Below, one piece after another: positions 3,111 to 27,803 of a stretch of DNA of 64,000 bases (its first letter is position 1; each line of letters starts with the position of its first letter). The translations under genes were made by a program, and so were the position numbers. The notes beneath the pieces are model-generated. The model did not search any database, was not told the DNA's origin, and worked only from the letters and a program-made list of their open reading frames with translations. Source of the DNA: an uncultured Nitrososphaerota archaeon (GTDB taxonomy: Archaea; Thermoproteota; Nitrososphaeria; Nitrososphaerales; Gagatemarchaeaceae); the NCBI GenBank assembly GCA_963718895.1, contig CAVRAG010000008.1, forward strand, positions 960,001 to 1,024,000. Reading direction: 5' to 3'.

Positions 3111-3118
3111 GCGAGGCT

Positions 3119-4639: not shown

Positions 4640-4725
4640 TCAAAACACCCTGCTTCGTGAGATTGTGAGTTTCACGGGTCCTTATTTGCGTTCGCGGGGC
4701 CCGAGGTAGGTCTCGGACGGAGTGG

Positions 4726-5583
4726 TCAGGGGATGGCCGAGAGGAACTTGGTGACTCGCTCGTTGAACTCGGACGCGTTCTCGATGTGGGGGAAGTGCCG
4801 CGACCCGGAGATCACCGCGAACCAAGCCTGCGGGATCGATGTGGCGGCGAGCTTGCCGATGCGCCTCAGCCAGAGGGCGCTCTGTTCGCCGTTCACGACC
4901 AGTGTCTTGCATGCGATCTTGCGAATCTGAGTCTTGAACGGGGGGAACTTCGTCCTGAGTTCGCCTATGGTCCTGGCGTTGTCGAGCATCATCAGCCTCT
5001 GCGCCTCAGGCAAGGCGGCGAACGCCCCTGGCGAGCCCTGTACACCGTCCACGTTCAGCTCCACGGCCTTCTCCGTCTCCCCGGCATCGAGGGCCTTGAG
5101 GGAGGGATAGAGAGACTTCAGTTGGAAGTCCCTCGCCGAGAGTGCCACCGAAGGGCTGCGAAGGAGGAGCGAGAACATCTGACCCCGGCTGCGTTCGTCC
5201 TCGACGAGCAGGGTGGAGATCGCCGGCTCCACGAGGACGAGCGAGCGAACGAGCTCGGGATGGTCCGCAGCCAGCTGGGCGGCGATGAACCCGCCGTACG
5301 AATGACCGATGAGGTCGACGGGGCCTGCACCAAGCTTCTCTATCAGGCCCTTCAGGTCCCCGGCGTTGTTCCCAACAGTGCTGTCCAGGACGTCGCCCTC
5401 CCTCTTGTTTGGATGGGCGTACCGCCTGCTGTACGAGACCACCCGGCGGTCCTTGGAGAACGACCCAATCTGCGAGTTCCAGGCGCGGTAGTCCGTTGGG
5501 ATTCCATGGGAGAAGACGACTGCTGGACCCGTGCCAGATTCCTCGTAGTAGAGAGTCACTCCGTTGACGTCGACGCTGGGCAT
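4726..5583 (-). CDS. Alpha/beta hydrolase
   Basis: HG oxyanion motif, GHSYG nucleophile elbow, C-terminal His (SRHFPH). Confidence 0.9.
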   Translation of the reverse strand: MPSVDVNGVTLYYEESGTGPAVVFSHGIPTDYRAWNSQIGSFSKDRRVVSYSRRYAHPNKREGDVLDSTVGNNAGDLKGLIEKLGAGPVDLIGHSYGGFIAAQLAADHPELVRSLVLVEPAISTLLVEDERSRGQMFSLLLRSPSVALSARDFQLKSLYPSLKALDAGETEKAVELNVDGVQGSPGAFAALPEAQRLMMLDNARTIGELRTKFPPFKTQIRKIACKTLVVNGEQSALWLRRIGKLAATSIPQAWFAVISGSRHFPHIENASEFNERVTKFLSAIP

Positions 5584-5687
5584 CGGTTCTTACCGCAGTT
5601 TCGCGTGCTATAAGCAGTTCGAGGGATCCGGGACACGGCGAAACGAAGAGAGGCGGGTTCGGTTCCTTGAAGGCTAGGCCGGTCGAC

Positions 5688-8698: not shown

Positions 8699-8810
8699 GG
8701 TAGTTTGGGGCCCCGCTTGCAGTTGAACCCTAGCCTAAGCGAATTAGGCAAAAAGGAAGACGGAGATTGACACAAAGGAGCGCAGGTTCGAATGAAAGGC
8801 AGAAAGCTGC

Positions 8811-8821
8811 GGGCCGGAAGG
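8811..8821 (-). repeat. Possible att remnant (11-nt match to tRNA-Ile 3' end)
   Basis: gggccggaagg, intergenic, same orientation as tRNA-Ile end at 27707; short enough to be chance. Confidence 0.35.
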
Positions 8822-11435: not shown

Positions 11436-11549
11436 GGCCTTGGCAGACTGAGAAGGAACGTTCCGAGTTCGAATGGGGTTCGGATCCGTTGACCTCCGAG
11501 AGCGGTTTTCCCCGGTCAGTCAATGATTCGTCGGGCTGAGCAGGAAAGC

Positions 11550-11634
11550 GGGCCGAAAGGGACCTACCCCTTGCAGGGGGTTGAACCTACGTCCAAAGCC
11601 ACGAGGGTTCGAGCCGCAGTCGGTCTCGAACCTT
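11550..11634 (-). repeat. tRNA-Ile 3'-end remnant with 62-nt structured insertion (copy A)
   Basis: gggccgaaaggga[62 nt]ctcgaacc versus tRNA gggccggaaggga-ttcgaacc; homologous over its full length to 15659-15746. Confidence 0.75.
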
Positions 11635-11713
11635 CCTATCATGTAGATATCATCAGGTCGTGGATGTTCGCGTCCCACTTTTCGAGACGCGCCATGCACT
11701 CCAGGACATCCTG

Positions 11714-13573
11714 CTACACCAGCAGCAGCCAAGCGGCAAAGATGACTAACGTAGCGATGAAGAGCCCCGCCCAAAGCCGCTTGCTGTGGTCGAAGATGTC
11801 TTTCCCGCTCATTGGAGAAATAGGAAAGGTGTAGAAGAAAGCGCCTATCACGCACATGGACAGGCCAGCTCCGCCAACGGCGGTGTAACCTCCCTTCAAG
11901 AGCAGGAAGAACAGCCCGGCAAAGGCCAGGTAGATGAGAACTCCAGACGCAGAGACTATGGCGCCCAACTTCTCCGTGAACTTCTTGGAGTTCACGTCCC
12001 GCGTAGGCGAAGAGAAAGGAACCTTGAAGACGAAGGTGGTGAAAAGAAAGAGGACGAGCCCCAGGGGCCAGATCACGTGCTCACTCCACACGCCCTTCAT
12101 TCGCAGGTACACTATGGAGAAGAAGCTCTGAACAAATGCAACGACAAAGCTTGTGGCGAGGAAGACCGGGAGCAACGCCCAAATCTGGCTCAGTGTAATG
12201 ACCTTGACGTAGGAGAAGGAAACAGCCAGGACGATTATGGACACGATGTACGCTAGGACTTCAGGTTTGGTGGGCCTGAAGAGAGAACCTTTCTTTTCTT
12301 TTGCATCGAGCTTGCGCTTGGATTCAATTACTTCTTCGAACCATTGTCTTATGTTGTCAGGGATTACGCCCTCGGTCTTGTCGGCGAGCGTTCCACCCAA
12401 GCCACCCAGGGGGTTGCTTATGGCGGCAAAGATCAGCGAAGCTGCTCCCACTATCGCCGCGGATACGCCCACCGCAGCAACCGCATTAGTTGGCGTGGGA
12501 ACCCAGACCTGCTGCACGATGTCTTGCGTAGAAGACGTTGTCGTCTGAACAATGCTTGATGTAGTGGTGGTGGACGCTGATGTAGTTGAACTGGTGGACC
12601 CGGATGCGGTGGATGAATCTGATATGACAGAGACCGTGCCCTCGCCTTCGTTGGCTACGAAGATCTCGCCCCTAGCAGGGTCATAGGCGGCGCCGTAAGG
12701 ATTGATCCCCACGGTTACAGTTGCGACGACGGAGTTGTTGCTGTCGGACATGACCGAGACCGAGGCCGAACCTCTGTTGAGCACGAATATCAGGCCCTTA
12801 GCAGGATCATAGATCGTGCCCCCGGGAGTGGTCCCCACCGTTGTGGTTGCGACGACGGAGTTGTTGCTGTCGGATATGACCGAAACGCTGCCTGAGACGG
12901 AATTGGCCACGAATACCTCGCCCTTGGCGGAATCATAGACTACGCCCAGGGGACCGCTTCCCACAGAGATGGTCGCGACCACCTGATTGCTGCTGTCCGA
13001 TATGACTGAGACAGAGCGGGAGTAGCTGTTGGCCACAAAGATCTCGCCTTTGGACGAATCATAGCCCAGGTCGTATGGACCGCTCCCCACAGGCACAGTT
13101 GCTACGACGGTATTGCTCTTGTCTGAGATGACGGAGACGGTGCCGGCGCCGGAATTGGCCACGAATACCTCGCCCCTAGCGGAATCATAGGCAAAGGATG
13201 AAGGGAAGGTCCCAACGGGCACCGTTGCTACTACTGTGTTGGTCTTGTCCGAGATGACTGAGACGGAGTTGGCACCATAGTTGGCAACGAAGACATCGCC
13301 TTGGCCGGAATCATAGACATCCCTGTATGGCGAGTGCCCCACGGTCACAGTTGCCCGCACGGCATAGCTGCTGTCCGACAGTACCACGACGGTGCCCGCG
13401 CTGGAATTGACCACGAATATTTCGGCCTTGCCGGAATCGTAGGCGACTCCATAGGGAGCGCCTCCAACCTTTATGGTTGAGATTACTCCGACGGCATGGA
13501 CCGCGCCCGCTGCTGACAAAGCAAGAACCACGATGAATGATAGGCCCAAGAGCGTCGAAACTTTGAAGCCCAT
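11714..13573 (-). CDS. Secreted YVTN/YncE beta-propeller, Ser/Thr linker and degenerate M50 (site-2 protease)-like membrane domain
   Basis: Signal peptide, ~7 YDSxKGEIFVAN..VSVISD repeats, C-terminal multi-TM region resembling archaeal M50 without HExxH. Confidence 0.8.
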   Translation of the reverse strand: MGFKVSTLLGLSFIVVLALSAAGAVHAVGVISTIKVGGAPYGVAYDSGKAEIFVVNSSAGTVVVLSDSSYAVRATVTVGHSPYRDVYDSGQGDVFVANYGANSVSVISDKTNTVVATVPVGTFPSSFAYDSARGEVFVANSGAGTVSVISDKSNTVVATVPVGSGPYDLGYDSSKGEIFVANSYSRSVSVISDSSNQVVATISVGSGPLGVVYDSAKGEVFVANSVSGSVSVISDSNNSVVATTTVGTTPGGTIYDPAKGLIFVLNRGSASVSVMSDSNNSVVATVTVGINPYGAAYDPARGEIFVANEGEGTVSVISDSSTASGSTSSTTSASTTTTSSIVQTTTSSTQDIVQQVWVPTPTNAVAAVGVSAAIVGAASLIFAAISNPLGGLGGTLADKTEGVIPDNIRQWFEEVIESKRKLDAKEKKGSLFRPTKPEVLAYIVSIIVLAVSFSYVKVITLSQIWALLPVFLATSFVVAFVQSFFSIVYLRMKGVWSEHVIWPLGLVLFLFTTFVFKVPFSSPTRDVNSKKFTEKLGAIVSASGVLIYLAFAGLFFLLLKGGYTAVGGAGLSMCVIGAFFYTFPISPMSGKDIFDHSKRLWAGLFIATLVIFAAWLLLV

Positions 13574-13665
13574 GATCGCTCACCAGCCTCGCTGGCAGGA
13601 TGAGGAAGATCGACTGTGACGCGATGAGTACAGAGGGGCCAACGTATGCGGAGGGAACGCAGAAG

Positions 13666-14868
13666 TCATTCTGTCGTACCGCGCCTTCTGTCCCTCTTCT
13701 GCGCGATGAGCGACAACGAGAGGACCACTCCGACCTGGACGGCCACGAGCACCAGGTAAGAAGCAGGGAGCGACGTGCTGGATGCTTGGCTTGATGTGGC
13801 GCTCTGGGTCGTGGTCGGACTTTGGCTGGTGGCTGTCGCGGAACTAGTCGCGATCGTTGATGCGGAAGAAGAATCTGAAAAGATATCGAGCGCGGCTGGC
13901 GTTGATCCGATGATTTCGCCCTTGCCAGAATCATACACTACCGACCCTAGTGAATTGGGAACTTGTGCGACCACTGCATTGTTGCTATCCGATATCACCG
14001 AGTTACCTACGAATATTTCGCCTTTGGCAGAATCATACGCTATGCCCTGAACTCCTGATAGCCCGGTCACGTTTGCAACCACTGCGTTTGAGCTGTCCGA
14101 GATGACCGAAACACCGTTGTAGCCGTTCGCCGCGAAGATTTCTCCTTTACTGGAATCATAAACTAAGCCAGAGGCGGTGACCCCGTTTATGGTTGCTACT
14201 ACGGTGTTGGTGCTATCAGATATTACTGAGATGCCCGGGCCAGAATTAGCGACGAAGATTTCGCCCTTGCCAGAATCATAAGCCATCTCTCTGGGGAAAA
14301 TTCCCACACCAACAAATGCGGTTACTGTATTGGTGCTATCCGATATGACGTAGACGCCTCCGAAGACATTTTGGCCGTTGCCTGCATCGGCAAGAAATAT
14401 CTCTCCTTTGGCGGAGTCATAAGCTACACCCCAAGGAAGCCACCATGAACCCGATGTCACGTTTGCAACCACTCGGTTTGTACTACCAGATAGAACCCAA
14501 ACCGCGGGAGGGATACCCTGAGCAGTTCCACTGCCTGAGGAGAGGAATATCTCGTGTTGTCCAGAATCGTAAGTCATCTCTGTCAGGAATCCGGGATACC
14601 CGGCTATGGTTACCGTTGCGACCACTTGGTTTGTACCATCAGATACAGCCGAAATGCCAGAGTAGCCTACCACGAATATTTCGCCATTGCTATAATCATA
14701 AGCCATTGCGCCGCTAATCTTGGGTATCGTGGAGGATACTGCCAGTGTTGGAATAGCATGAACACTGCTGATTGCTGAAAACGCAAAGGTCGTGATGAAT
14801 ACCAAGCCTAAGAGTTTCCAAACTCTAACTTTCATAAACACTCTCAACCTTCTGGCACCCATCGCCAA
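13666..14868 (-). CDS. Secreted YVTN/YncE beta-propeller protein with C-terminal TM anchor
   Basis: Signal peptide, YDSxKGEIF repeats, Ser/Thr linker, TM followed by a basic tail. Confidence 0.85.
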   Translation of the reverse strand: MAMGARRLRVFMKVRVWKLLGLVFITTFAFSAISSVHAIPTLAVSSTIPKISGAMAYDYSNGEIFVVGYSGISAVSDGTNQVVATVTIAGYPGFLTEMTYDSGQHEIFLSSGSGTAQGIPPAVWVLSGSTNRVVANVTSGSWWLPWGVAYDSAKGEIFLADAGNGQNVFGGVYVISDSTNTVTAFVGVGIFPREMAYDSGKGEIFVANSGPGISVISDSTNTVVATINGVTASGLVYDSSKGEIFAANGYNGVSVISDSSNAVVANVTGLSGVQGIAYDSAKGEIFVGNSVISDSNNAVVAQVPNSLGSVVYDSGKGEIIGSTPAALDIFSDSSSASTIATSSATATSQSPTTTQSATSSQASSTSLPASYLVLVAVQVGVVLSLSLIAQKRDRRRGTTE

Positions 14869-15091
14869 GCCGAACTCCTCCCATATAGGACTTTTGCAAT
14901 TCCTACAACATAAGTTGTTGCTTCAGGAGAGTCTTATATCATCTGCCCGTCGAAACGATTGCAAATCAGGTTCTGCGAGTCGTTCTTGAAGCGCCGGGTC
15001 ACAGCCCCGCGAGACCGTCGCGCTTCTCCGGAAGATGAAATGGCCCATGCGTTCTCGGCATCTGCTTCAAGACCTATGAATTCTATGACAT

Positions 15092-15361
15092 ATGTTCTTT
15101 TTTAATGCAAAGTTTATAACGCAAAGCCAGTATCGGTTATCAGAGGGATTCGAATTGGCCCAACAAACGACCACTGCGATAAAAGGGAATACGCATGCGA
15201 TGATCCTGGCTGTGTTAGGAGTGATTGCATTTATCGCCGGAGTCGCGGTATCGACCATCCACGGGACCGGTCTGCGTGGCTCGGGCTTGGGAACCCTTCT
15301 CATCGTGGCCGGCGTAGTGCTACTGATCATCTCCTACCTGCGTTTCTCTCGAAAGGTCTAG
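15092..15361 (+). CDS. Small two-TM membrane protein (start probably downstream, ~15155)
   Basis: Two hydrophobic helices and a basic C-terminus. Confidence 0.55.
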   Translation: MFFFNAKFITQSQYRLSEGFELAQQTTTAIKGNTHAMILAVLGVIAFIAGVAVSTIHGTGLRGSGLGTLLIVAGVVLLIISYLRFSRKV

Positions 15362-15658
15362 CAGAAGCCCAACCCTAGGAACTTGAAGTCGTTCTCACGA
15401 TCGATCTGGGTTTCAGAGATCATGACGCGCTCAGATTCGGGATTGGCGCACTGGCCAGGGAAGGTGGGTCGACGGGCGGAGTCGCTCGTGCCATCGCCCT
15501 CCTAGTGGTTATCGCGCTTACAGCGTCCGCCACCGTCCCCCTCCTGGTCGCGCCCTCCCCGGCAGGGGCAGCTACTCTATACAGGTCTGACGTGGTAATC
15601 TGATGACGACTTTGAGTCAACCTTCGGAAGCAGAAAAATGCGGCCCGCTGGCAAATGA

Positions 15659-15746
15659 TGGTGGGCCGGAAGGGACCTACCCCTTGCAGGGGTGGACCCT
15701 GAGCCCAGAGCTACAAGGGTTCGAGCCGCGACTGGTTTCGAACCTT
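15659..15746 (-). repeat. tRNA-Ile 3'-end remnant ending ACCA with 61-nt structured insertion (copy B)
   Basis: tggtgggccggaaggga[61 nt]ttcgaacc; 15 nt identical to 27705-27719. Confidence 0.8.
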
Positions 15747-15847
15747 GTTGCCGTAGCATGTTACTGTCGGTCTCGGTTTACTATCCCCACAGTCGGGCCC
15801 TCCTAAATTCACTCACAATAGGTCTGGTCATTTGACCGGGACGAACA

Positions 15848-17035
15848 CTACAGGACCCGGTCGACAAGAGGTATCTTCCTGATAAGATAGGCCAGCCCCC
15901 AGGTCGAGGGCACTATCATCACCGCTGCCAAGCCAAACTTGAGCAGCGACTCTAACTGGACCTGATAGAGCACGAGAGCCGAGAACATGACTATGACGGT
16001 GGCCTGCAGGAAGTACGCGGCGTAGAAGTTCTTCGCGGCAAAGCTCCAGAGTCTTCCCGGGGAGTTGAAGCGCTTGCGGAAGAACGAGATGGCGAACATG
16101 GTCATCCCCACAGCGAAGGTGGAATCCCAGAGCGCGTAGATGGCGGAGGACAACGACCCGTATCCGACCAGGCTGCCCCAGCCAAGCGAGCTCACTTCTG
16201 TGCCGATTATCGCAAGGACAAGCAGCGTCGCGCTCGCGATGAGGGCGATCTCAAAGAAGCGCTTCGCCATGGCGTCGGGCATCTTCCTCAGCCAGTCGCC
16301 GCGGGCGGCCATCGTCCCGACGATGAAGAAGCTCAGATACTGCGGCAGGTCGAAGAGGGAGGGGAAACCGAGCACTTGGGCATCTAGTGGCACCACGATT
16401 CTTAGCGCATAGGCAGCCGCAGCAAGGATCAGGATGAAGGCAGCTATCTTCCGGTATGATGGGAAAGAGCGGGCTTCTTTCGTTGCCCTGTCTCTCACAG
16501 CCACGCGCCAGATGACATAGCCGAACTCGAAGATGAGCAGCAGCTCGACGAACCAGAGAGGCCCGGTGCCCACCGACTGGGTAATGAAGGTCAGGTTCAA
16601 TCCCATGGGGGCAGTAATCCCCTGCTGGACCAGCTGATCAGCAGTCATGTGATAGAACGCTAGGTAGATGGTCAGCGGGTTGATGACGAAGAAGAAGACG
16701 GCGAGCGGGATGAACAGACGAATCAGCCTGTCCTTGATGAACAGCTTGGCACCCTTCCGGTCAAAAGAGCCAGGCGTGAAGTAGGCGGAGAGCAGGAAGA
16801 AGGCGCCGAGGAACCAGGCCTGGTTGAAGTTCGTGAGGAGAGTCAGCACCAGCGAGGCAACCGGGTCGGTTGCAGGCTCCGTGTAGTAGAAGGACCCTGA
16901 CCCTCCGTAGGTGATCGCCGTATGATGGAGGATCACGAGGCTCACCAGCGCCCCCCTGAGGTAGTCTACAAAGTAGATGCGCGTCTTACCGGGTTTGGTC
17001 CCCTTTTCCACCGGCGCCGGGCCCTGCGCGCTCAC
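15848..17035 (-). CDS. Acyltransferase-3 family (OpgC/MdoC-like) membrane acyltransferase
   Basis: RIYFVDYLRG...HHTAITYG, FFLLSAYF, GPLWF; GTG start at 17035 overlaps the upstream stop. Confidence 0.85.
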   Translation of the reverse strand: MSAQGPAPVEKGTKPGKTRIYFVDYLRGALVSLVILHHTAITYGGSGSFYYTEPATDPVASLVLTLLTNFNQAWFLGAFFLLSAYFTPGSFDRKGAKLFIKDRLIRLFIPLAVFFFVINPLTIYLAFYHMTADQLVQQGITAPMGLNLTFITQSVGTGPLWFVELLLIFEFGYVIWRVAVRDRATKEARSFPSYRKIAAFILILAAAAYALRIVVPLDAQVLGFPSLFDLPQYLSFFIVGTMAARGDWLRKMPDAMAKRFFEIALIASATLLVLAIIGTEVSSLGWGSLVGYGSLSSAIYALWDSTFAVGMTMFAISFFRKRFNSPGRLWSFAAKNFYAAYFLQATVIVMFSALVLYQVQLESLLKFGLAAVMIVPSTWGLAYLIRKIPLVDRVL

Positions 17036-17187
17036 TTCCAAAGCACCCCAAGCACCACTATCACCGCCCCGACAACGAGCAGCGGGGCGGCGTACGGGTC
17101 TCCGAGACCTCCGATGCCGACGCGGACCACACCGATCAACGCGACTATGGCGCCCACCAGCAGGAGCCTGAGTTTCATGGCTTTCAT
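17032..17187 (-). CDS. 51-aa two-TM membrane protein (not in ORF track)
   Basis: MKAMKLRLLLVGAIVALIGVVRVGIGGLGDPYAAPLLVVGAVIVVLGVLWK*; GTGA overlap with the acyltransferase start. Confidence 0.7.
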   Translation of the reverse strand: MKAMKLRLLLVGAIVALIGVVRVGIGGLGDPYAAPLLVVGAVIVVLGVLWK

Positions 17188-17230
17188 GCACTCCACCTCC
17201 CTGGCCGCGGGAAGTATCGGGCCAGCCCGA

Positions 17231-17968
17231 CTACTTCCATTTCGTGAGTATCTCCTCTCTGCGGAAAGTGGCTCTGGCGACGTAAAGGAGCAGCAGGTCG
17301 ACCACCAGTAGGATGACGGCGATGATGAGGAGGACGCCCGTGTTGCCGAGCGGTACTATGCCGATTTCGCCGCCGACGTAGACCCCAGCGAACGGGAGTA
17401 TCAAGAGCATGCCGACCTGTTGCGCAACCCGAACGTCGCTCACCCTAGACGAGACGATGACGTTCCATTCAACACTCATTATCGCTGCGAGAGGGACGGC
17501 GAGCAAGAAGACGATGACAGCATTCCAGTTGGGAAAGAAGTAGTAACCCAATGTACCGTGTGTCACGAGGTCAATGAGGGTCATGTAGATTGCAGCCCCG
17601 ACCAGGATCGCGCCTATGGGCGGCAGGAATGATGAGATTCCCTTTCCCAGCAGGATTTCGCCGTCGGTGGTGGGGGTTGCCAGGAGCCGCTCGAAGCTCT
17701 TCTCGACTTTTTCGCCGATTATGCTGTAGGATGCGATCGTAGTCGGAATCAGGCCTGCGAGGATGAGGAAGAAGAAGGTGAGCGCCGGAAGAAGGTATGT
17801 GAGTTCGGAGGCGGCAATCCCGCTTTCAAGCTCGACATAGTAGATCACGACGGGAAGGAAGATCGCGGCAAGCAAGGGGATGACGAAGGCCGAATAGATT
17901 ATGTTCTTCTTCTTCAAGAACGTCTTGAAGTCCTTCGAGGCGATTATCCAGGATTTCGAGAGTCTCAA
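17231..17968 (-). CDS. ABC-2 type permease
   Basis: SIIGEKVEKSFERLLATP..GEILLGK motif; six TMs. Confidence 0.9.
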   Translation of the reverse strand: MRLSKSWIIASKDFKTFLKKKNIIYSAFVIPLLAAIFLPVVIYYVELESGIAASELTYLLPALTFFFLILAGLIPTTIASYSIIGEKVEKSFERLLATPTTDGEILLGKGISSFLPPIGAILVGAAIYMTLIDLVTHGTLGYYFFPNWNAVIVFLLAVPLAAIMSVEWNVIVSSRVSDVRVAQQVGMLLILPFAGVYVGGEIGIVPLGNTGVLLIIAVILLVVDLLLLYVARATFRREEILTKWK

Positions 17969-18888
17969 TTGTTGTCACGCCTCACGAGCTTCAGGTACGC
18001 ATCCTCCAGGGTTGAGCCGACGACTGTGACGGATTGGACATGGCCGCCGGCCTGGTAGATCGCGTCCGTGATGGCGACGTTCTCTTTCTCTGGATCCTTG
18101 ACATCGAATGTCAGTTTGTTGCCGTCGATTGACAAGTCTACGGGTGACAGTTTCCTCAGCGCGGCGAGGATCGCGTCGTTCACCTCCACGACCTGAACCA
18201 CGGTCTTCCTCCCGCTTACCGAACGCTCCAACTCTTCCGGGGTGCCCAGCGCCATCAGCTTCGTGTTCAGGATTGCAATCCTGTCGCAGATTCTCTGCGC
18301 CTCATCCAGGTTGTGCGTGTTCAGAAAGATGGTCCTTCTCTCTCTCTTCAGCTCCAGGATGAAGTCCCTGACCGTCTTCGCCGACTCTGGGTCGAGGTTC
18401 GCCGTTGGCTCGTCCATGAAGAGTATCTGTGGGTCGTGGATGAGGGCGCACGCTATCCCGAGCTTCTGCTTCATCCCCTTCGAGTAGGTGCCGACCGCGG
18501 CGTCTTTCCTCTCCCAGAGCCCCAGCATCATGAGGAACCTCCGGATGTTCTCCTTCCTCTGCGCCTCCGTGCAGTCATAGAGCTTCCCGTAAAAGTCCAG
18601 GTTGTCGTAGGCGCTGAGGGCATCGTAGAGGCCCACGTTGTCGGGGACGAACCCGACGAGCTTCCTTATCTTGAGTGACTCAGCTTCGTTACTAACGTCA
18701 TAGCCAGCGACCCTCGCATCACCGCTGGTCTTTGATATCAGACAGCAGAGCATTCTGACCGTGGTGGTCTTCCCCGCTCCGTTGGGCCCGAGGAACCCAA
18801 AGACCTCTCCCTCCTCGACTCGGAGGGTCACGCCATCGACCGCGGTCAGGTCCCCGAATTTCTTGGTCAGGTTAACTGTCTCGATCAA
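17965..18888 (-). CDS. ABC exporter ATP-binding protein
   Basis: GPNGAGKT, YSKGM, DEPT, H-loop. Confidence 0.95.
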   Translation of the reverse strand: MIETVNLTKKFGDLTAVDGVTLRVEEGEVFGFLGPNGAGKTTTVRMLCCLISKTSGDARVAGYDVSNEAESLKIRKLVGFVPDNVGLYDALSAYDNLDFYGKLYDCTEAQRKENIRRFLMMLGLWERKDAAVGTYSKGMKQKLGIACALIHDPQILFMDEPTANLDPESAKTVRDFILELKRERRTIFLNTHNLDEAQRICDRIAILNTKLMALGTPEELERSVSGRKTVVQVVEVNDAILAALRKLSPVDLSIDGNKLTFDVKDPEKENVAITDAIYQAGGHVQSVTVVGSTLEDAYLKLVRRDNN

Positions 18889-18950
18889 TCACACCACAAC
18901 GGCTCGACGTTTTGAAGAACGCCCCTGGCGGGTAGTTAAACGGGGGAGAT

Positions 18951-18968
18951 AGTTCACTTTAGTGAACT
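18951..18968. promoter_or_regulatory. Palindromic operator between divergent ABC and regulator genes
   Basis: Perfect inverted repeat agttcact-tt-agtgaact, flanked by TATA-like ttaaa and tttata. Confidence 0.65.
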
Positions 18969-19019
18969 CGCACCATCATTTTATAGCGAGCGGATTCTGA
19001 TTCTGGAATAGTCTGCCCA

Positions 19020-19664
19020 TTGGAAAGCGATGTCCTGCAACAGCAGCGCATAGAGGCCGAACTGATCGCCGCGAGGCTCTTCCGATTCAGGGCAAGAAGG
19101 GGCCTTGGAGTACTCTACTCTCTCGCTTCAGTGGTACCTCTGATGGCAATCATCCTCTACGTCACGGTTCCAATCCCGTTCGCAATCGCTGGAGCGATAG
19201 CCGGCAGCGTCGCTGTCTGGTTTGTCGCGAGGTTGTGCGGATACGGCGGATTCTCGAGGATGCAGTACAGCCTGGACTTCCTGAAGGGAGAGGGAGGGAC
19301 GACCTACGATGAGAGGAGGGGCCGCTGGTTGTCTTGGCGCAACTTCGCTTGGTTCTTCTTGACCGTCGGGCCCTGGCTTGGATACACGATCGCCAATGAA
19401 GAGGGCTATCCTATCTTTTCAGGGATGTCCCTCGTGATTGTGGCCTTGATCTTGGGATTTTCACAAGCGACGAAGCAGGATCGCATCGTCGAAAGAAGGG
19501 TGGAAGACTGGGCATTCGTAGCGGGGATGATCCTAATCGCCTTCGCGGCCATCCTCCCCGGAGCTCCGGCATGGACCTGGGTTCTCGCGTCACCTCTCTT
19601 TGTATTCTGTGGAACGAAATCGCTCTACGAGGCACCCAAGGAGTTTGCACTGGTTGCCTCCTGA
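19020..19664 (+). CDS. Multi-TM membrane protein
   Basis: About six hydrophobic segments; co-oriented with the wHTH gene. Confidence 0.7.
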   Translation: MESDVLQQQRIEAELIAARLFRFRARRGLGVLYSLASVVPLMAIILYVTVPIPFAIAGAIAGSVAVWFVARLCGYGGFSRMQYSLDFLKGEGGTTYDERRGRWLSWRNFAWFFLTVGPWLGYTIANEEGYPIFSGMSLVIVALILGFSQATKQDRIVERRVEDWAFVAGMILIAFAAILPGAPAWTWVLASPLFVFCGTKSLYEAPKEFALVAS

Positions 19665-20019
19665 GTCGGGACAGGGCGACAGCCGGGTGGGAAAGGAAGA
19701 GGAGGACCTGGTTTCTGACGTGGGATTACCCGGACCGTTTTCGGTCTCGACACGGGTGGGAATAATGACTGCTCTTCTCGGATTCAAGAGGACCACCTTC
19801 ACGGAATTGCTCCTTGCCGTCAAGACTCCGAAGAGCTCGCTCAACAAGAATCTCGGGATCCTGGAAGACTATGGACTCATCAAGCAACGCAAGGCTTTTG
19901 TCCTCGCCCCGGGCCCGAGGACAGTCATCGAGATAACCCCTGAAGGAGAGGAAGCCACCAAGAAGCACCTTGAATTCATGCGCACTCTGGCAGACCGACT
20001 TCTCGGACCGAAGGAATAA
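19600..20019 (+). CDS. Winged-helix (HTH_34/ArsR-like) regulator; true start downstream of ~19650
   Basis: TRVGIMTAL...TFTEL...SSLNKNLGILEDYGLI...PRTVIEITPEG. Confidence 0.85.
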   Translation: MYSVERNRSTRHPRSLHWLPPESGQGDSRVGKEEEDLVSDVGLPGPFSVSTRVGIMTALLGFKRTTFTELLLAVKTPKSSLNKNLGILEDYGLIKQRKAFVLAPGPRTVIEITPEGEEATKKHLEFMRTLADRLLGPKE

Positions 20020-20287
20020 GCGTCTCCTGCGAGGCGTTAGCTGAAGATAAAAGTGATTGGGTCGTAAAGGAGTCCCTGGTCTGTCGCTGATACGACTCCC
20101 TCCCTCTCGCTCCTCTTCGAACGAGCCCAAAATAGCATCAAATCACCACACGCAGTTCATTCTGGGCTAATCTGAATAATGGGCCGGAAGGTATGCATTT
20201 AATTAATTAAGCGAATCCTTACAACCGCACCATTCATTTTTCAGAGGTTTCTGATTCATTCGTATCTCCTTGGCGTGTCGCCGTATA

Positions 20288-21830
20288 TTACTCGAAGATC
20301 CCGCTGAAGGAAAGTGTCTGACCATCACTCATCGTAATGACTCCGGCGAAGGAGTCGCCATAGCTTTGGTTCCCGGGTAGACTCGTGATGTAGACAGAGC
20401 AAAACGAATAGCGGTCGAATAGTTTAGCGCATTGATCCATTGACAGGTGAAGAATACGTTGACCCTCCAAATGTAAGGGCGATGGAGGAAATGTTTGGGC
20501 TATACCCTCCGGCATCCCACGGCTCGTAGACGCTTATTACTCCTACCGCATTTGCTGGCGAAACAACAGCTTCCGAGTCTAGGCTTGGACTGCAGCATAC
20601 GAGCGACTAGCTGAGAACCCTGACCCTCTGGGTGGACCAAGTCGGCCATTACACTGACATTGTAACCTTTAGAAGGATAGTTGCTTCCTGGATAGGTATA
20701 GTTGATTCTGAGCAATTGTTGGTCGGGTATGAGAGCTATATGGGTAGATTCCCTTGGCGTCGAGATACAGACTCCCAAGGTAATCACTTACTGGCGCGGC
20801 CAATGTGACCGTGATTCCCTTGGAAGGCCCTAGTCCATCGACTCTCCCCACAATGAACCACTTAGGGGAGGACTGGGCTTCATGCTTATGATGGAGAATG
20901 GAAGCGATGCCTCTAAGCTGGTTATTGTCGCATTGGTCGAAGTGAATTGTGGTGCGAAGTAAAGTTGACTGTCAGGCTGGTTGAAATAATGTCGTGAGAT
21001 GGGACCCAATCATTGTAGCATGGGTTGTAATTGAATTGAGCGCAAAGGCTGAGTGGTTGGATAGCCCGTGAGGCCGGAATCGCATCCCAGACTGAAACCG
21101 CCCCTTGAAGTTCGATGGTGACTCCCGATGGGAGAAAGCAAGGGAACATTGCACACTGATTGGTGACCGTTAGATTATACCCATTCGGCCCTAACGGAGA
21201 AGGGTACAATCCAATCCCGGTCAAGACTATGAATGGGGGTCCCGTATCGTTGTAAATTGAAAGCACCATGACGTCGCCCACTTCAGCTCCTGTAAGCAAG
21301 GAGATTCTTGACGGAAGGCTGACGTTCTGCACGACGAACGAGCTGTAAAGTGAACTGGAGGAAGTCGAGTACGCTTTCCCCACCGTCGAATATAGTGCGT
21401 GTTGAATGGTGCGATCGGATGCTGTTACGTAGACGTCTCGTCCCTCAGGCATCGTAGTGCCTGAGGCGGGGACCTGAAGCACCTGTCTCCCCACAAACGA
21501 AATATTTTGCCATGCGAAATATCCGTACTTCGAATCGCTTGAGGAAATCAGGGCCTGGAACTGAAACAGCGCAGGTCCAGCCGTATGCCCACTGCTAATC
21601 TCTGAGTTGGTGTTGGTAGACGTAAGGGATTGTGTTGTCTGAAACGACGATGAACCAATTGTGGCCGTTGAAGACGAGTTACCTGGTTGTGTTATCGAGG
21701 AAGACGAACTTTTTTGGGGATTTAGTGATGTGGCCAGTCCTATTCCAGCTCCAAGAATTACAAGAAGAACTATTCCGATTATCACTATCCTGCCAATGGC
21801 ATAGCGTCGTCGAGATAGACTGCGACTCAC
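20288..21830 (-). pseudogene. Fragmented secreted/surface protein(s) with class III (pilin-like) signal peptide
   Basis: RRRYA|IGRIVIIGIVLL N-terminus, Ser/Thr linker; same-strand fragments 20922-21830, 20669-20851, 20500-20787, 20288-20515. Confidence 0.5.
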
Positions 21831-21999
21831 GTTTTGACTTCTAAATCTCCAAAAATCCCATCGACTTCTTATTCTTTCCGAGTCAGGTAGCTATTGCGTT
21901 TCCTGACCATGCGACAGGTTCCGTTCAACCAATAGCACGCCTCATCCTTATCCAGCTAGCTAGGCACGGCTTAATAGAAACGAACCTGGTCTATCGGGC

Positions 22000-22620
22000 G
22001 TGTCAGAAGATTCGTTACCTCCTGGTTTCACGATAGCACGCCCGAGCATCACTCAAAGGATGCGGGCGTTGCGAACAAACAGGTTCCTGAGAATCGGTGT
22101 CATCCTCGTTCTCGCGGCAAGTTTGGTGCTTCTGACCTATTCCTATGGGGTTCGGTTTCCGACCAGCGCACCAATCGCTGACTGGATCACCGCCACAACG
22201 CTGGTCATCGGGTTAATATTCGGAGAAGATATTCGCACTCGCTTTTTTATCAAACCTGAACTTGGCTAACACTCTCAACCCGAGACCAAAAAACTTCGGG
22301 AAAGACCACTGAAGCAAGCGAGACTCTTACCGATTGGCTCTCGCCACAATTACGAGTTACAACAGGAGTTCTCAGGGTTGTATCGCCTATTTCTCTGCAG
22401 ACGGATTGCGCATGGCGCCTTAGGTGCATATGAACGGCTAAGCTGGCAATTTTCGATAGGCGATCCCGATGTAGAGGAGATAGCAGACAGGACGGACATC
22501 CGAGAAGGAGACAGTAAGGTATTGATGCTGGTTTATTCGAGGAGCGAAGGCGCATCCTATTACTTCGATTCTCAGGAGCATCAAACGGCGGACGACCCGA
22601 AATACAGGTTAGAAACCTGA
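22000..22620 (+). pseudogene. Membrane protein, probably frameshifted (22000-22269 plus 22378-22620)
   Basis: Two-TM N-terminal ORF followed by a same-strand fragment; AT-rich. Confidence 0.4.
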
Positions 22621-22878
22621 CAGATGGTATAAGGCAACAATCCTCATCGTGGATAGGAACCGACGAGAGAAGGAATGGAATATCCGAATCCATTCTACTA
22701 AGAAAGGCGAGTTAGGAGTCTATCGTAAAGAAGAGGTCCCCGATGATGAGAAGTAAATATCAATTCCCTTCGACATGAACTCGCTCTTGGATACCCTAAG
22801 GATGGGTGTACCTCCAAAGCAGCTTCTTTTCCCCAAAATAGCTCAATTATTCCCCCTTTCCTAGCCCCCCTCAGGCGA

Positions 22879-23110
22879 GCCCATAGCAAGCAACACCCCC
22901 GCGAATCGAGCTCTTTCGGAGCGAAGATGAGCGGCCCCGCTTCAAGGCGGGGTGAAGGCGAAAGCCGAGCGGAGGGGCAAAGAGGGGGGAGGGAGCCCCG
23001 AAGGGGCGGAAGGCCGTGAGGAGCGAAGCGACGGACACGGCGAGCGAAGCGAGGGGGTGAATTTGCACCGAAGCGAAGGATGAGCCTGAAGGGCGTTGCT
23101 TGCTATGGGC
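22879..23110 (+). other. Multi-hairpin structure (candidate single-strand origin or transfer origin)
   Basis: Perfect 16-bp terminal IR gcccatagcaagcaac/gttgcttgctatgggc enclosing several hairpins, including two GCGAAGC and gccccGAAggggc. Confidence 0.6.
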
Positions 23111-24977
23111 GAGCATTCTTTTCGCTAAGGAACTCTGCGAGTGTCGCCACATTGACCCGCGAACTCTTCAGCCTGGCGTATCTGTCGCTCTTCGCGATGT
23201 CAGAGTTCGGGACAAGGACAATGAACGGCTTGATAGCGCTGAGCTTGGAGATGCGTTCCTCAAGGTCGCTCGTCCTCGTCTTGAGCCCCGTCTCTATCTC
23301 GTAGTATGCGCTCTCGGTCTCTACATCGGCGAGGCTCTGCCCCGACTCTGCCACGCTGATGACCTTCTCCTGATTCTCGCTCAGCCTGTCGAGTAGCTGC
23401 CTTACCATGTATCGGTGAAGGCCGCTGACCTTCTCTTCCCCGCTCTTCGCAAAGTACAGGGAGAGGGTCTCTCCCGACTCGGCATCGTCGTACTTCTGCG
23501 CCTGGACTTCTCCGGCGCTGAGAAGCTTCAGGAGAACGTCCCTGACCTTCAGCTTCGCGACATTCTTGTCAATGTGGTAGTTCTCTTCTATTTGGCTGGC
23601 TAGATCGGGAGACCCAGACCACGTCACCATTGTCGAGCCTCTCCCTGACTATCGCGCCGTAGTCTATCGCGGGGTTTTGCGACTGAGCACTAGCAACATC
23701 AGCGGGCGCGCCATACTGCGCCTGGCGGTCTGGAAGCTCGACCCTGTCCGCCCTGAAGATCGGGATTATGCCGCCGTTCCCGACCCGAAAGGTGAGGTCT
23801 ATGAACTGGTGAGGGCGCAGCTCCTTCACTATCCAGACGTAGGCGGAGTCTATCTTGCGTATCGCCTCCAAATCTCTCTCGGACGTGGTGTTGAAGACAA
23901 GCTGAGTCGCAAACTGGTTCCTGAGCGCGTCGGGTATGTCGGAGTAGTTCTGCGTGGCCGTATAGAGGGCGCCGAACTGCCTGATTTGCCGCATCAGGGT
24001 ATCAACAATCGTCCTCGCCTCGGTCTCGTAGAGCTGTGTGAGCCTGTGAACCTCGTCTATCACGATGAGGGTCTTCCTCTTCTCCTGCAATCCGAGCCTG
24101 CTCGTCAGCGAACTCCATATCTGCCTCAGCGCGATCTCGGCGTAGAACGTCTTCGCGCTCTCGTCGAGGTATGAGAAGTCTAGGACTGTGTCTTTGGCGA
24201 GGTCTATGCTGAAGGAACCCTCCCCGACGACCAGACCCCCAATCTGTGCCTCTATCAGCGCGAGCGCTTCCTTCTGTATGTCGGTGGCCTTCCTTCCCGT
24301 GCGCTTGAGGTTGTCCTTGAACTCGCTCCAGTTCTTGCTTTCGCGAGCGACGCTCTTGACTATCGCCCTGACCTGCGAGAAGGTAATACCCCTCACATTG
24401 GCTGGGAAGGCCAAGAGCGTATGCTATCGAGAACGCGTCCGCGTCCTGGAACGGGTCGGGTATGTGTCTTGGAGACGTCTATCACCTGGCATGGCATACG
24501 AAGGTAGGCGTCGTTCGGCTTGAACGAGAAGACGATCTTGGGCTCCTTCGCCGAGAGCAGGAGGACGTTCATCAGCTCGCTCTTGCCCATGCCAGAGCGG
24601 CCGCAGACCATCACGGACGGGTTTCCCTTCCGTCCGATGTATTCCTCAAAGTTCACGTAGCAGTGGTCTATCCGCTTGACGAGAGGTATCTCCCGCTTCC
24701 CGTATCTGACTACCTCGGGACGGCTCCTGCCAGACGCGGATTGCCTGTATTCTACGATGGGCTCCAAGAGGTCGGCGAAGGCAACCTGCCTTATCGGGGT
24801 GCGAGCGAACCTCCTCAGTATGCTCGTTCTCATTATCAGCAGCGCAGCCATGGCAATAGGAATGAGAGCGACTGCGATCAGGACGGGCTTGCGACTGTAG
24901 AGGAGCGGGAAGGCTATCAGGATCAGGAATGCTACGATCTCGTGCTTCGTCTTCTCGGTGAAGGTTGAGACGTTCAT
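23103..24977 (-). CDS. Membrane-anchored HerA/VirD4-like ATPase with C-terminal PD-(D/E)XK-like domain (two frameshifts)
   Basis: Overlapping ORFs: two TMs and Walker A GRSGMGKS; Walker B IVIDEVH and ATQ; ADV..YYEIETG. Confidence 0.75.
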
Positions 24978-25165
24978 CTGAATTCCTCCCTGAGTATGGC
25001 AAGCCAGGTCCCTAGCTTCGCTACGAACTCAGTGGCCGAGAGAGTGTCAGGCTCGGCGGCAAGGACTCTTCTGAGGAGGGACTCGCTGTCCAGTGTTGTT
25101 GCGGCCAATTCCTTCAGCTGCCGGATGTCCACCGTGCGCTCGTCCAGCACTAACTTACCTACCAT
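24974..25165 (-). CDS. Small hypothetical protein coupled to the ATPase gene
   Basis: 63 aa; ATGA overlap with the ATPase start. Confidence 0.7.
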   Translation of the reverse strand: MVGKLVLDERTVDIRQLKELAATTLDSESLLRRVLAAEPDTLSATEFVAKLGTWLAILREEFR

Positions 25166-25203
25166 ATCGGTAGGAGCCGAAAAACGACAGAATTATAAGC
25201 CTT

Positions 25204-25216
25204 CCTACTTAGTAGG
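25204..25216. promoter_or_regulatory. Palindromic operator in divergent promoter
   Basis: cctact-t-agtagg next to TATA-like attataag in a 57-bp divergent gap. Confidence 0.55.
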
Positions 25217-25222
25217 TATGCG

Positions 25223-25894
25223 ATGAATGCAGTCCCAGTAAAGGTCTCTCTCCTTCAGCTTCTCGAAGTTGAGCCGAAGCGTTACTCCGACGTGGTGAGA
25301 GAGCTGGGAAGGCCGGACAAGACGGTTTACGTGACGCTGGTGGCGCTCGTGGACTCGAAGCTCGTTGCCAAGAACGACGAAGGAAAATATATCCTGACGG
25401 ACGCTGGCAAGCGTGAACTGGAACGAATAAGGTTCGTCAGAATGGCGGAGGAGGAGGACGATATCGAGATTATCTCGAACACGCGGACGGCGATAGCGTT
25501 GGGCAGGTGCTACGATCTCCTGTTTGACATCCGCTATTTATTGTCCCGAACGCCAAAAGCCGAAGGAGAAGACAGACGGGCGGTTGGCGAAAGGATGAAT
25601 GTCATTAGAAACCTTCTGCTGAAGTACAACCCATCACTGAAGAAGGATGAGCTGCTGAAGGAAGAGAAGAAAGGACTTGACATCGGCATTGCAGACCTAG
25701 TAAGCGGCGGGATATGGTGGGGAAAGAGGTTCGTCAAGTGGGGGCTGAAGGATAGGTACATTCACCTCGTGAATCTTACGCGCGAACTCCCTGAGGGCCC
25801 GGTAAAGGACGAAATACTAGCCTCACTTGCGTTGTTTAGAGAGGTGGTCGGGAAGCTGGATAGCAGACTGAAGGAGTTGGCCGCGTATTCTTGA
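25223..25894 (+). CDS. wHTH transcriptional regulator (putative element repressor)
   Basis: PKRYSDVVRELG..DKTVYVTL...GKYILTDAG. Confidence 0.75.
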   Translation: MNAVPVKVSLLQLLEVEPKRYSDVVRELGRPDKTVYVTLVALVDSKLVAKNDEGKYILTDAGKRELERIRFVRMAEEEDDIEIISNTRTAIALGRCYDLLFDIRYLLSRTPKAEGEDRRAVGERMNVIRNLLLKYNPSLKKDELLKEEKKGLDIGIADLVSGGIWWGKRFVKWGLKDRYIHLVNLTRELPEGPVKDEILASLALFREVVGKLDSRLKELAAYS

Positions 25895-26169
25895 CGCTCT
25901 CGGAGAGAGCCTGGAAGCACATCCGCGAGAGGCATCCCGAACTCTCGAACTACGAAGGATTGATCAGGGACGCGCTCGCCGGGCCCGACATCGTCCTGAA
26001 GGGCGATCAGGAAGAAAGGAAGGCGGTCAAGCTGTTCACGAAGACTCATCTCGGGTCCAAGTACCTCGTTGTTGTCTATCGGGAGGAGAGCGGAAAGAAG
26101 GATATAATAACGGCCTACTTCACTTCAGATTTGAAGAGAGTCAAGGGTGAGCCAATATGGAAAGCCTAG
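25891..26169 (+). CDS. PBECR/RelE-like toxin nuclease
   Basis: WKHIRERHPEL, PDIV, YLVVVY, IITAY. Confidence 0.75.
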   Translation: MTLSERAWKHIRERHPELSNYEGLIRDALAGPDIVLKGDQEERKAVKLFTKTHLGSKYLVVVYREESGKKDIITAYFTSDLKRVKGEPIWKA

Positions 26170-26354
26170 TCGTGAAGCCTAAGAAACTGGACATAGACTA
26201 CGACGAGAAGAGCGACGTGCTCTATATCTCAGTGGGCAAACCGAAGGAGGCAGACGACTCAATCGAGCCACAAGAGGGCGTTGTGATGAGGACTCGGAAG
26301 GGCGAGCTCGTGGGCATCACGATCGTGGGTCTGAAAGCTCATCTCAGCAGATAG
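26157..26354 (+). CDS. DUF2283 (YuzE-like) putative antitoxin
   Basis: YDEKSDVLYI...GELVGITI. Confidence 0.85.
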   Translation: MESLVVKPKKLDIDYDEKSDVLYISVGKPKEADDSIEPQEGVVMRTRKGELVGITIVGLKAHLSR

Positions 26355-26365
26355 GTGCGGGCATT

Positions 26366-27654
26366 TCAAAACGGGAGTTTCATTATCGCTTCTCCGTCCG
26401 GCAGCGAAGCCACGTATTCGAAGCCCTGATTGATGTATGACTTGACCTCCTTAACGGGTATGACCTTCTGCCTCGACCCATTGCTGTTCATCATCCCAAC
26501 TAGCCGCTGCCTGACCAGGCTCTGAAGTTCCTCATTCGTCATGTCGTCGAGATTCATCTTCTCAAGCTCTTCTTTCTTGAACCCTGCAACGATGAGGAAC
26601 CGTTCGTTGAACGCCTTACTGATCTGCTTCTCGGTGGCTGACTCTGCCTTTGTGGAGAGGAGAGAGTCGCACTTCTTGTAGGCTTCCCTCATCTCCTCGA
26701 TCATCGAGGGTGGGAGCGTCCTTTGTTCGTCGAATACCTGGCCTCGATGTCCCCTTTGTGCCCCATCAGGAACTGGAGGTAAGGATGTGAGATGAAGCCC
26801 TTCGACTCCGCAACGATCATGCCGGTGTCACAGTAGGCTCTAAGGACGTAGGGTCTCCATGTGAAACCTGCCTTGAGAATCGCTTCCTTCACGTCTCTCG
26901 TCACGAGGGTGGTTCTCAAGAACCGATTCTTCCTGATGCCCCTCGGGTCGAATGCGAGGAGCGCGCTTTCGGCGGTAAGCTTCTCTCCCTGCTTGACCCT
27001 CTCCTGAATGTGCTCTTGGATGTAGGTGATCGCCTCGCCGCTGACGAACGCGAAGTAAGGGTGCCTCGCCTTGCTCAGCGCCCTTCTCACGAGCAGAATC
27101 GTAGGGACCTTCTCGAACTCGATTCCGTCGTCCCTTACCTTTGCCTCGGTGAAGTCTCCCAATCGTATCCCATCCGTCCCGAGGTAGTCGCCGAGGCTCT
27201 CAGGTCTGAGACCGCTGAACGCCATCAGCGCAACCGAAGTTCTTCCTCTGGGTGATGCCATCCTGAGGATTCTCGATAGTTCGTCCTTGCTCGGAATCCT
27301 TTCGCGGGCTATCGTTGGGGTGTCGGAACTTCCCTTGATGTTCACCTTCAGCTTCACGTCGAGGTTGTTGTAGGAAGTCCAAGAGAGGATGACCTTCCTG
27401 AATCGCTCGATGTAGGAGCCCGCCTTCCCGTCCTTCTCCATCCTCCTGACGAAGTCGGTAAATTCGTCCCTGAACTTCTTGGATCGTGCCTCTGCCAGTA
27501 TCTCTCTCGGCGTGGTCTTTGCGAGGTTGGAGTATAGCCCCAGCGTCCTCAGGTAGACCGTCGCAGTGATGACGGACTTGGCTTCGAGGTTCTCATACCA
27601 TCTGCGGACATCCTGATCGTCGAGAAGATGCCTGTATTTGCTCCCAAAGGGCAT
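26366..27654 (-). CDS. int: Tyrosine recombinase/integrase (frameshift ~26715)
   Basis: SGLRPE, YVLR, LMGH...ARY catalytic set; continues in frame as MIEEMREAY. Confidence 0.9.
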
Positions 27655-27705
27655 ATTTGGTCACTGGAAGGGCAATTTAATAAAGGATTCTCTTAATAAT
27701 TTAAG

Positions 27706-27803
27706 TGGGCCGGAAGGGATTCGAACCCTCGACCTCTCGATTATCAGTCGAGTGCTCTAGCTAAGCTGCCCGCTCTCTTATCGGAGCTCTGAGCTACCGG
27801 CCC
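27706..27803 (-). tRNA. tRNA-Ile(GAT) with 23-nt intron at 15/16 (27766-27788)
   Basis: Cloverleaf, anticodon arm ctcga-ctGATaa-tcgag; BHB gctc ag|a...gggc ag|c. Confidence 0.9.

Follow-up and report, generated by a model that had tools for sequence, protein, structure and literature searches.

What kind of element leaves two structured repeats, both ending in the letters of a tRNA 3' end, behind a tRNA-Ile gene of an uncultured Nitrososphaerota archaeon? The DNA in question is a 64,000-nt stretch of contig CAVRAG010000008.1, referred to here as the window. The genome to which it belongs comprises 3.1 Mb and is labelled G000, while other genomes and loci carry labels of the form G0xx and L0xx. 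An earlier note, made from the letters alone, had pointed to two homologous segments at 11550-11634 and 15659-15746. Both are present: copies A and B are minus-strand homologous repeats of ~92 nt with 82% identity over 85 nt (Table 1), and a third copy, C, is found on another contig of the same genome (G000:C4:78397-78490). The note took the segments for att remnants, and this part of it holds well, as the copies lie in a direct-repeat array of the tRNA-Ile 3' end, in the same orientation and downstream of the tRNA and an integrase, and the arrangement recurs elsewhere. The repeats are probably attachment-site junctions, each composed of an arm and a core, of elements that have integrated in tandem behind tRNA-Ile(GAU). 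Integration into tRNA genes and tandem arrays are ordinary. What is unusual is that the crossover core forms part of a conserved arm that folds into hairpins and covaries.

Sequence, fold and distribution of the module

On the minus strand, copies A and B read AAGGTTCGAR, then ~61 nt, then TCCCTTYCGGCCC. Each copy is comprised of four parts: a ~10-bp hairpin (AAGGTTCGAA ... TTCGAACCCTT; hairpin 1), the short linker GTAGCY, a long imperfect hairpin (hairpin 2) and the 3' letters TCCCTTCCGGCCCA. The module as a whole spans ~130 bp: a spacer of ~22 nt separates an AT-rich box from the two-hairpin block (~78 nt), and the 14-nt tRNA-derived core comes last. A whole-genome scan for the last 14 nt revealed that the core of copies B and C is identical, at 14/14 letters, to positions 60-73 of tRNA-Ile(GAU). 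The 3' end of this tRNA reads GAGGGTTCGAATCCCTTCCGGCCCA, i.e., GAGGG TTCGAAT CCCTT CCGGCCC A; its gene is on the same strand as copies A and B and lies 12-16 kb from them. The core of copy A differs from the tRNA-Ile end at 2 of its 14 positions. One more match to the 14-nt core, at G000:C4:97724 near an integrase, falls inside a coding region and was set aside as a chance match. A covariance model built from the three own-genome copies scores them at 100-104 bits, and its scan of the whole 3.1-Mb genome gives no further match at E<=0.01.

The AT-rich box has the consensus GTGG(G/C)G(C/A)ATAWATA upstream of full-length copies and is located ~25 nt before the conserved block. The strict box pattern occurs once in the own genome, at copy C. 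In copy B the core is intact and the box weakened. Copy A, with its mutated core and lost box, looks dead by its sequence. No known RNA or tRNA is recognized at the copies by ARAGORN or Rfam (window at gathering thresholds, five loci at E<=10). A protein-coding reading was also rejected. The plus-strand open reading frames (ORFs) over the copies (11523-11834 and 15603-15806) change frame from one copy to the other, and the module is therefore non-coding. A conserved peptide fares no better: the indels are not multiples of three and, by inspection, a short minus-strand ORF that starts at a conserved ATG is not kept between the two subgroups of modules introduced below.

Using the model of three copies, a match was found in 9 of 61 genomes of relatives. 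The module is carried by 12 of 97 genomes of the family (own genome included) and by 6/22 genomes of the genus. A model rebuilt from 24 members was employed for the class, where 2 of 150 genomes from other families have a match, both from one family, f21. For genome, metagenome and viral contigs, a degenerate 21-nt pattern from the apical hairpin served as a pre-filter and the covariance model was then applied. Among genome contigs, 16 stretches matched the pattern and 5 passed the model; 4 of the 5 were already in the genome set and one belongs to a new metagenome-assembled genome (MAG). Metagenome contigs contributed 21 pattern matches, of which 9 passed. The carriers of pattern matches are placed in Nitrososphaerota/Nitrososphaerales, and a carrier genome has one to three copies. 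Given its scattered occurrence across genomes, the element is accessory and sporadic.

The cores of these modules are not all derived from tRNA-Ile. Modules of a second subgroup end in CCCCCCCGGTCCA, which is the 3' end, from position 61, of a partner tRNA in G018 and G022 (L031 and L032). This partner is a tRNA-like gene located 4-6 kb upstream that reads GGGCCGG ... GGGGG TCCGAGT CCCCC CCGGTCC A, and inspection identifies it as a putative intron-bearing tRNA missed by the tools. The module end at L077, a metagenome locus, differs again from both subgroups. Two modules are truncated (L022/L037 in G013:C76 and L015/L036 in G027:C1). One keeps hairpin 1 and the linker only and sits beside a convergent tRNA at a contig end, and the other directly adjoins a coding region and starts within the hairpin 1 3' strand. 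At L020, a scrambled fragment (tcccttccg joined to attcgaaccctgt) is present just after the module.

The pairing of the module is kept while its letters change. Across 24 sequences, 82.4% of cells are paired, versus a shuffled mean of 77.9% and at most 55% when partners are slid, and 19 of 29 modelled pairs have changed on both sides; these figures overstate the support because the alignments were fitted to the model's own structure and the sequences are related. Hairpin 1 of the second subgroup alone has U-A, C-G, U-G and A-U/G-C alternatives at two positions. In hairpin 2, an outer helix (TGGGC/GCCCA) and a helix of 4 bp (AGGG/CCCT) flank an unpaired centre (TC/TCC); a T-T mismatch, a bulged A and an apical hairpin that varies complete the structure. 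In the outer helix the upstream strand TGGGC..AGGG pairs with the tRNA-derived core CCCT..GGCCCA and is an imperfect inverted copy of it. This helix is 86% paired and 5 of its 6 pairs have changed on both sides, in an alignment whose fitting to the structure favours it. At most 6/500 shuffles reach the observed value on any of five measures. The upstream strand tracks changes in the core: TGG-CC goes with GGTCCA, a terminal C goes with CCG in L077, and T-A goes with GACCCA in G001. The outer helix pairs are those of a tRNA acceptor stem stacked on a T stem, with a 26-nt hairpin in place of the T loop. The statement of the earlier note that stems are kept and loops differ applies to hairpin 1 and the long hairpin 2, whereas the small hairpin it had drawn (tggac/gttca versus tgggc/gtcca) finds no support above shuffled controls. 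The paired fraction of that local hairpin is reached by 441 of 500 shuffles, and its 5' letters make a better match with the 3' end derived from the tRNA.

Could the repeats instead be tRNA 3' portions that carry a structured intron at the non-canonical 59/60 site and are spread by mobile elements? Position 59/60 counts among the non-canonical archaeal tRNA intron sites, and the junction numbering of the tRNA-Ile subgroup resembles that of such introns. The 5' letters GAAGGTTCGAA match tRNA-Ile positions 49-59 at 10/11, and the 3' flank matches positions 60-73 at 14/14, so the 3' side of the proposed junction is exact. An insertion or intron inside a tRNA is where the proposal fails. There is no tRNA body upstream of the copies, and the genomes searched with the covariance model (97 of the family, 24 of the order and 150 of the class) yielded no intact tRNA with the insert. 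ARAGORN finds no tRNA overlapping any of 14 loci, and Rfam finds none at the copies. The sequence upstream of the copies is the conserved AT-rich box and not tRNA. Where TTCGAA is expected, the second subgroup has GGTGTGGAAC/GTTCCRGACC, unlike the T loop of its own tRNA, and two members from family f21 carry TTTGA where TTCGA is expected. The 5' flank is thus not kept as a T arm, and its tRNA-like letters are base-paired in hairpin 1, with covariation. Inspection places the two junctions at the bases of separate hairpins, 60 nt from each other, where a 4-bp helix cannot bring them face to face; unlike those of known introns, they show no evident splicing motif. A bulge-helix-bulge scan gave scattered, non-conserved matches in 17 of 24 modules and missed both positive controls, the intron-bearing tRNA-Ile and tRNA-Ala of the window; the scan is therefore invalid and the judgement on splicing motifs rests on inspection. 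Taken with these points, the intron explanation is very improbable. The conserved feature of the 5' part is the hairpin and not the T-loop letters, and the T-arm likeness of GAAGGTTCGAAACC in the tRNA-Ile subgroup may be a relic of an origin of the module from the tRNA-Ile end.

The array behind tRNA-Ile and its counterparts elsewhere

In the window, the modules belong to an array that starts at tRNA-Ile(GAU). First comes a 7.5-kb integrated element, here named MGE1, that is bounded by the tRNA-Ile end and a 12-14-nt repeat. Units B and A follow, and after them a third stretch runs from module A down to ~8.8 kb, where a core-like remnant may be the distal end of the array; at <=2 mismatches, ~1 such match per 16 kb is expected by chance. 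GC content is 0.49-0.59 across 8-28 kb versus 0.60-0.64 on both flanks. In G007, a complete genome, 7.7 kb of different DNA separates tRNA-Ile from the start of the backbone that is homologous to window 1-5589, and the DNA between tRNA-Ile and the conserved backbone varies among relatives. The region is a variable island anchored on tRNA-Ile. On another contig of the own genome, a 30-nt tRNA 3' fragment is located 3 kb from copy C.

Table 1. Coordinates of the array and of the parts of modules A and B in the window.
Feature	Position	Strand	Basis or remark
tRNA-Ile(GAU), D-region intron, integration target (attL side)	27705..27803	-	ARAGORN, Rfam; core TCCCTTCCGGCCCA = 27705-27718
Tyrosine-recombinase gene, 317 aa, directly downstream of tRNA-Ile	26701..27654	-	weak phrog_1 match, E=0.0012
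MGE1, 7.5-kb integrated element: integrase, winged helix-turn-helix (wHTH) protein, split HerA/FtsK-like ATPase, several unknown ORFs	20194..27704	-	Pfam, PHROGs
Copy of tRNA end (TACCTTCCGGCCCA), attR of MGE1 and proximal junction of unit B	20180..20193	-	exact 12-mer (20180-20191)
P' motif (CAGAATGAACTGC), 15 nt after core	20152..20164	-	related motifs after core at 8 other junctions
Unit B cargo: two unknown ORFs, ABC ATPase, ABC-2 permease, acyltransferase-3	15751..20179	-	Pfam; without integrase
Module B AT-rich box, degenerate (GTGGGGATAGTAAAC)	15776..15790	-	flank alignment
Module B	15659..15750	-	covariance-model match 103.5 bits; fold z-score -4.8
Module B hairpin 1	15715-15746	-	part of module B
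Module B linker	15708-15714	-	part of module B
Module B hairpin 2	15662-15707	-	includes tRNA-identical core 15662-15675
Unit A cargo: two NHL-repeat beta-propeller proteins (11714-13573, 13666-14868), small ORFs	11639..15658	-	Pfam; without integrase
Module A box position, box lost	11664-11678	-	flank alignment
Module A, decayed copy	11546..11638	-	covariance-model match 100.8 bits
Module A hairpin 1	11603-11634	-	part of module A
Module A hairpin 2	11549-11595	-	part of module A
Module A core, reads TCCCTTTCGGCCCG	11549-11562	-	sequence read
Core-like remnant (CCTTCCGGCCCG, 11/12 match)	8810..8821	-	near renewed GC rise; weak evidence

Related copies occur in other genomes downstream of a tRNA or a tRNA-end remnant, and never inside a tRNA. 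A second copy of the module's own last 12 nt, in the same orientation, is present within the fetched stretch at 7 of 13 genome loci and at 2 of 10 loci from metagenomes or MAGs. Most partner cores are exact 12-mers, for which the chance expectation by arithmetic is ~0.002 per 16-kb locus. The partner at L034 is inexact. In G013 (L026) the partner is a full tRNA-Ile, confirmed by Rfam, 1.8 kb upstream. At 9 junctions the core is followed, after 13-16 nt, by a P' motif, CAGAATRRGCYCC; three of these directly follow a tRNA or tRNA-end remnant and one follows 20180-20193. With P' motifs after the cores and the module at the other end, each unit therefore begins with P' and ends with a module. In G013:C174, a divergent integrase gene starts ~105 nt beyond the box and P' lies across the core from it; the layout is like that of an attP. 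At L027 (7860-8100; G005:C56), the box is repeated ~50 nt downstream of the module core. Its upstream box abuts a 25-nt fragment, T arm plus acceptor, of another tRNA on the opposite strand, and a distant integrase-like ORF comes next.

The cargo between junctions is cellular in kind and includes ABC transporters, Nramp, NHL proteins, a TRAM protein and an acyltransferase. Homology between loci is largely restricted to the module. In an all-against-all BLASTN comparison of 21 loci, nearly all pairs are homologous over 75-190 bp at the module alone and differ in cargo. The metagenome contig L066 and the window are alike over 1.6 kb at 81% identity, covering the acyltransferase and module B, and the match stops at 15663, within the core. 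The unit downstream in L066 is common to L076 and not to the window, and the upstream unit of L076 differs. Units have therefore been reshuffled at the module. NHL-repeat beta-propeller genes recur beside tRNA-Ile ends, namely in unit A (window 11714-14868), in the unit of copy C (L038 8488-9771) and in G003 (L094 13532-14390), which is a tRNA-Ile locus with an NHL gene and without a module. The copy-C unit and G003 have a common flank, ctgctttcaagggg, after the tRNA end.

Under the explanation that we favour, a tyrosine integrase would recombine the core of a circular element with the tRNA 3' end, and strand exchange would take place within the 14 nt. Integration would restore the tRNA, and the module and core would come to lie at the distal end of what has been inserted. 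Units would be stacked by repeated insertion, with the next unit starting past the core with the short P' motif. The cargo-only and mostly integrase-less units would be either moved in trans or decayed leftovers. The core strand is paired with its upstream imperfect inverted copy in a helix like an acceptor stem stacked on a T stem. The anatomy of the array, the identity to the tRNA, the confinement of homology to the module and the covariation are directly shown, whereas we infer that this fold is needed in cis.

Several observations weigh against this explanation. Of the 26 full-length modules on which box spacing and integrase adjacency were assessed, 1 has a clear integrase next to it, and a second case (G005:C56, 22% identity) is weak. 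PF00589 has no match in the window, and units A and B are without an integrase by Pfam. An occupied versus empty pair for a module-bearing unit was not found among the loci compared, and the mobility of these units is for this reason deduced from reshuffled neighbours only. A free circular form carrying the module was not found either, and viral contigs gave 0 matches to the 21-nt apical-hairpin pattern, a single pattern applied without a model search. The pair counts come from alignments already fitted to the structure of the model. Counts of G-U versus A-C are contradictory, at 25 versus 7 in the outer helix and 6 versus 26 in hairpin 1, and leave the folding strand unsettled. Finally, the box is conserved beyond the need of a promoter, and the sequences that precede the TATA boxes of own-genome tRNA genes do not resemble its G-rich 5' half.

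Possible roles of the fold

Three roles may be considered for the fold within an attachment site. The module may give rise to an RNA of ~95 nt transcribed from the box, which we rate at somewhat below an even chance. It may act in recombination as folded single-stranded or extruded DNA, which we rate slightly lower. The remaining, smallest share goes to a double-stranded protein-binding arm. An RNA is favoured by the distance of the AT-rich box from the conserved block, which is like that at own-genome tRNA genes, by the conserved ATGA at the predicted start and by G-U pairs on the sense strand. A role at the level of DNA is favoured by the inclusion of the crossover core in the fold, and by a box that is nearly letter-for-letter alike between subgroups whose hairpins have diverged and that has a single strict occurrence in the genome.

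In the integron attC site and the folded attP of CTX phage, the crossover strand folds back on an upstream inverted copy of itself; the resulting hairpin is imperfect, its centre is unpaired and it has extrahelical bases. The R and L boxes of attC carry the consensus GTTRRRY. The module may be a folded-strand substrate of this kind that recombines with a double-stranded tRNA end, in which case the array would be an integron-like cassette platform. The parts of hairpin 2, from the outer helix and unpaired centre to the 4-bp helix, T-T mismatch, bulged A and variable tip, are consistent with this, and so is an upstream strand that changes along with the core from one target tRNA to another. Loci are alike at the site alone, and the cargo is diverse and without an integrase; in these respects and in the pairing of the core with its inverted copy the module resembles attC and the CTX attP. 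However, no IntI or Xer context is seen: an IntI-type integrase was not found, the type of the integrase being unclassified. No GTTRRRY box is seen in the modules by inspection, a pattern search not having been run. Units hold 1-5 genes in either orientation, and the additional hairpin 1, the box and the P' arm are foreign to attC sites. There is no sign of a single-stranded stage, and classical double-stranded recombination accounts equally well for the array. An attC-like folded site, which the earlier note had offered as its alternative, is one of the two mechanistic readings that we keep; in the full form outlined here, an attC-like or CTX-like substrate is unlikely. The same low weight is given to a broader conjecture, in which Nitrososphaerales would carry a tRNA-3'-anchored integron-like platform. 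Integrase-less packets would there be captured and reshuffled via the ~130-bp site, and the folded strand would offer the core to a tyrosine recombinase as a mimic of the acceptor and T stem, possibly together with a site-encoded RNA.

Another alternative removes the module from recombination altogether. It could be the gene of a mobile-element small RNA, transcribed from the AT-rich box, with a tRNA-like acceptor/T-stem 3' helix that is perhaps trimmed by host tRNA-processing enzymes. The overlap with the core would then supply the 3' end, and the RNA would serve as a regulator or decoy. Of 26 modules, 16 have the octamer richest in AT within the upstream 70 nt at 23-28 nt ahead of the conserved block, which resembles the TATA-like spacing at own-genome tRNA genes, and ATGA is kept at the predicted start after the box. 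The excess of G-U on the sense strand of the outer helix, two adjacent G-U pairs in hairpin 1 of two f21 members, and indels that rule out a conserved peptide also agree with an RNA. On the other hand, Rfam has no match even at E<=10, a consistent T-run terminator does not follow the core, the G-rich half of the box does not look like a tRNA promoter of this genome, and copies A and B keep the fold despite their decayed boxes. On balance, a small RNA that acts outside recombination is improbable. The idea that the box is a general promoter was rejected, as it has one strict occurrence in the genome and is a poor match to tRNA promoters.

Arrays of integrase-less units are themselves known. Streptococcal cis-mobilisable elements and accretion arrays contain att-flanked units without their own integrase, in tandem at one target. 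The array described here is similar in that att-flanked, integrase-less units are stacked at one target. The streptococcal arrays differ in being bacterial, in having no structured arm and in using a different recombinase lineage.

Among archaea, the att sites of thaumarchaeal integrated elements are short (median 17 bp), lie mostly at tRNA 3' ends, including those of intron-bearing tRNAs, are used by tyrosine recombinases, and give arrays through site reuse (Krupovic et al., 2019; PMC6563490). The present array shares with them the insertion into the 3'-distal portion of tRNA genes, very short direct repeats, tyrosine recombinases and tandem reuse of a site. The text covered of that study describes neither a conserved covarying structured arm beside the core nor integrase-less units with one arm across target tRNAs, and its supplementary att tables may include such sites. 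In the text covered of a review on archaeal tyrosine recombinases (PMC8371274), the terms 'hairpin', 'arm-type' and 'cruciform' do not occur. A literature search on structured attP in archaea yielded nothing relevant.

At least 2 target tRNAs and two families of soil Nitrososphaerales have the arm in common, and the small units that it delimits carry adaptive cargo and no integrase of their own. If the fold is functional, it would represent a new archaeal recombination-site architecture that is a structural analogue of attC, or else a small RNA of the mobile elements whose 3' end is taken from a tRNA. Either role, if true, would help explain the movement of transporter and surface propeller genes among uncultured relatives of ammonia oxidisers. 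The covariance model of the module can be used as a marker of island borders in these genomes.

Integrases, repeated contigs and MGE1

The ORF directly downstream of tRNA-Ile has no Pfam match at E<=0.01, and on inspection its translation has the expected look of a tyrosine recombinase. Paralogues with 36-43% identity adjoin other tRNA genes of the own genome, and one adjoins the module in G013:C174. The own-genome paralogues number four and are located at G000:C8:628062-629003, C9:5322-6260, C11:6925-7863 and C5:6828-7602, mostly right beside tRNA genes; the one on C5 is split. The C9 and C11 copies each come with a tRNA-Pro(GGG), and these two contigs look near-duplicate. A pair of tRNA-Thr and tRNA-Leu genes is repeated (G000:C10:321-1017 and C8:1603402-1604085), and C5 and C1 also have a stretch in common, which suggests assembly redundancy. 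ARAGORN misses many tRNAs of the own genome or assigns them implausible kilobase introns, as expected where non-canonical introns are common.

MGE1 belongs to a family that differs from that of the module-bearing units. Its ATPase is split over two ORFs, 23569-24414 and 24393-24977. The same element, with the same AT-rich end abutting the core, occupies tRNA-Ile in G009, G015 and G022. The flank that comes after MGE1 in G015 adjoins the tRNA itself in G021, which looks like an empty site for MGE1.

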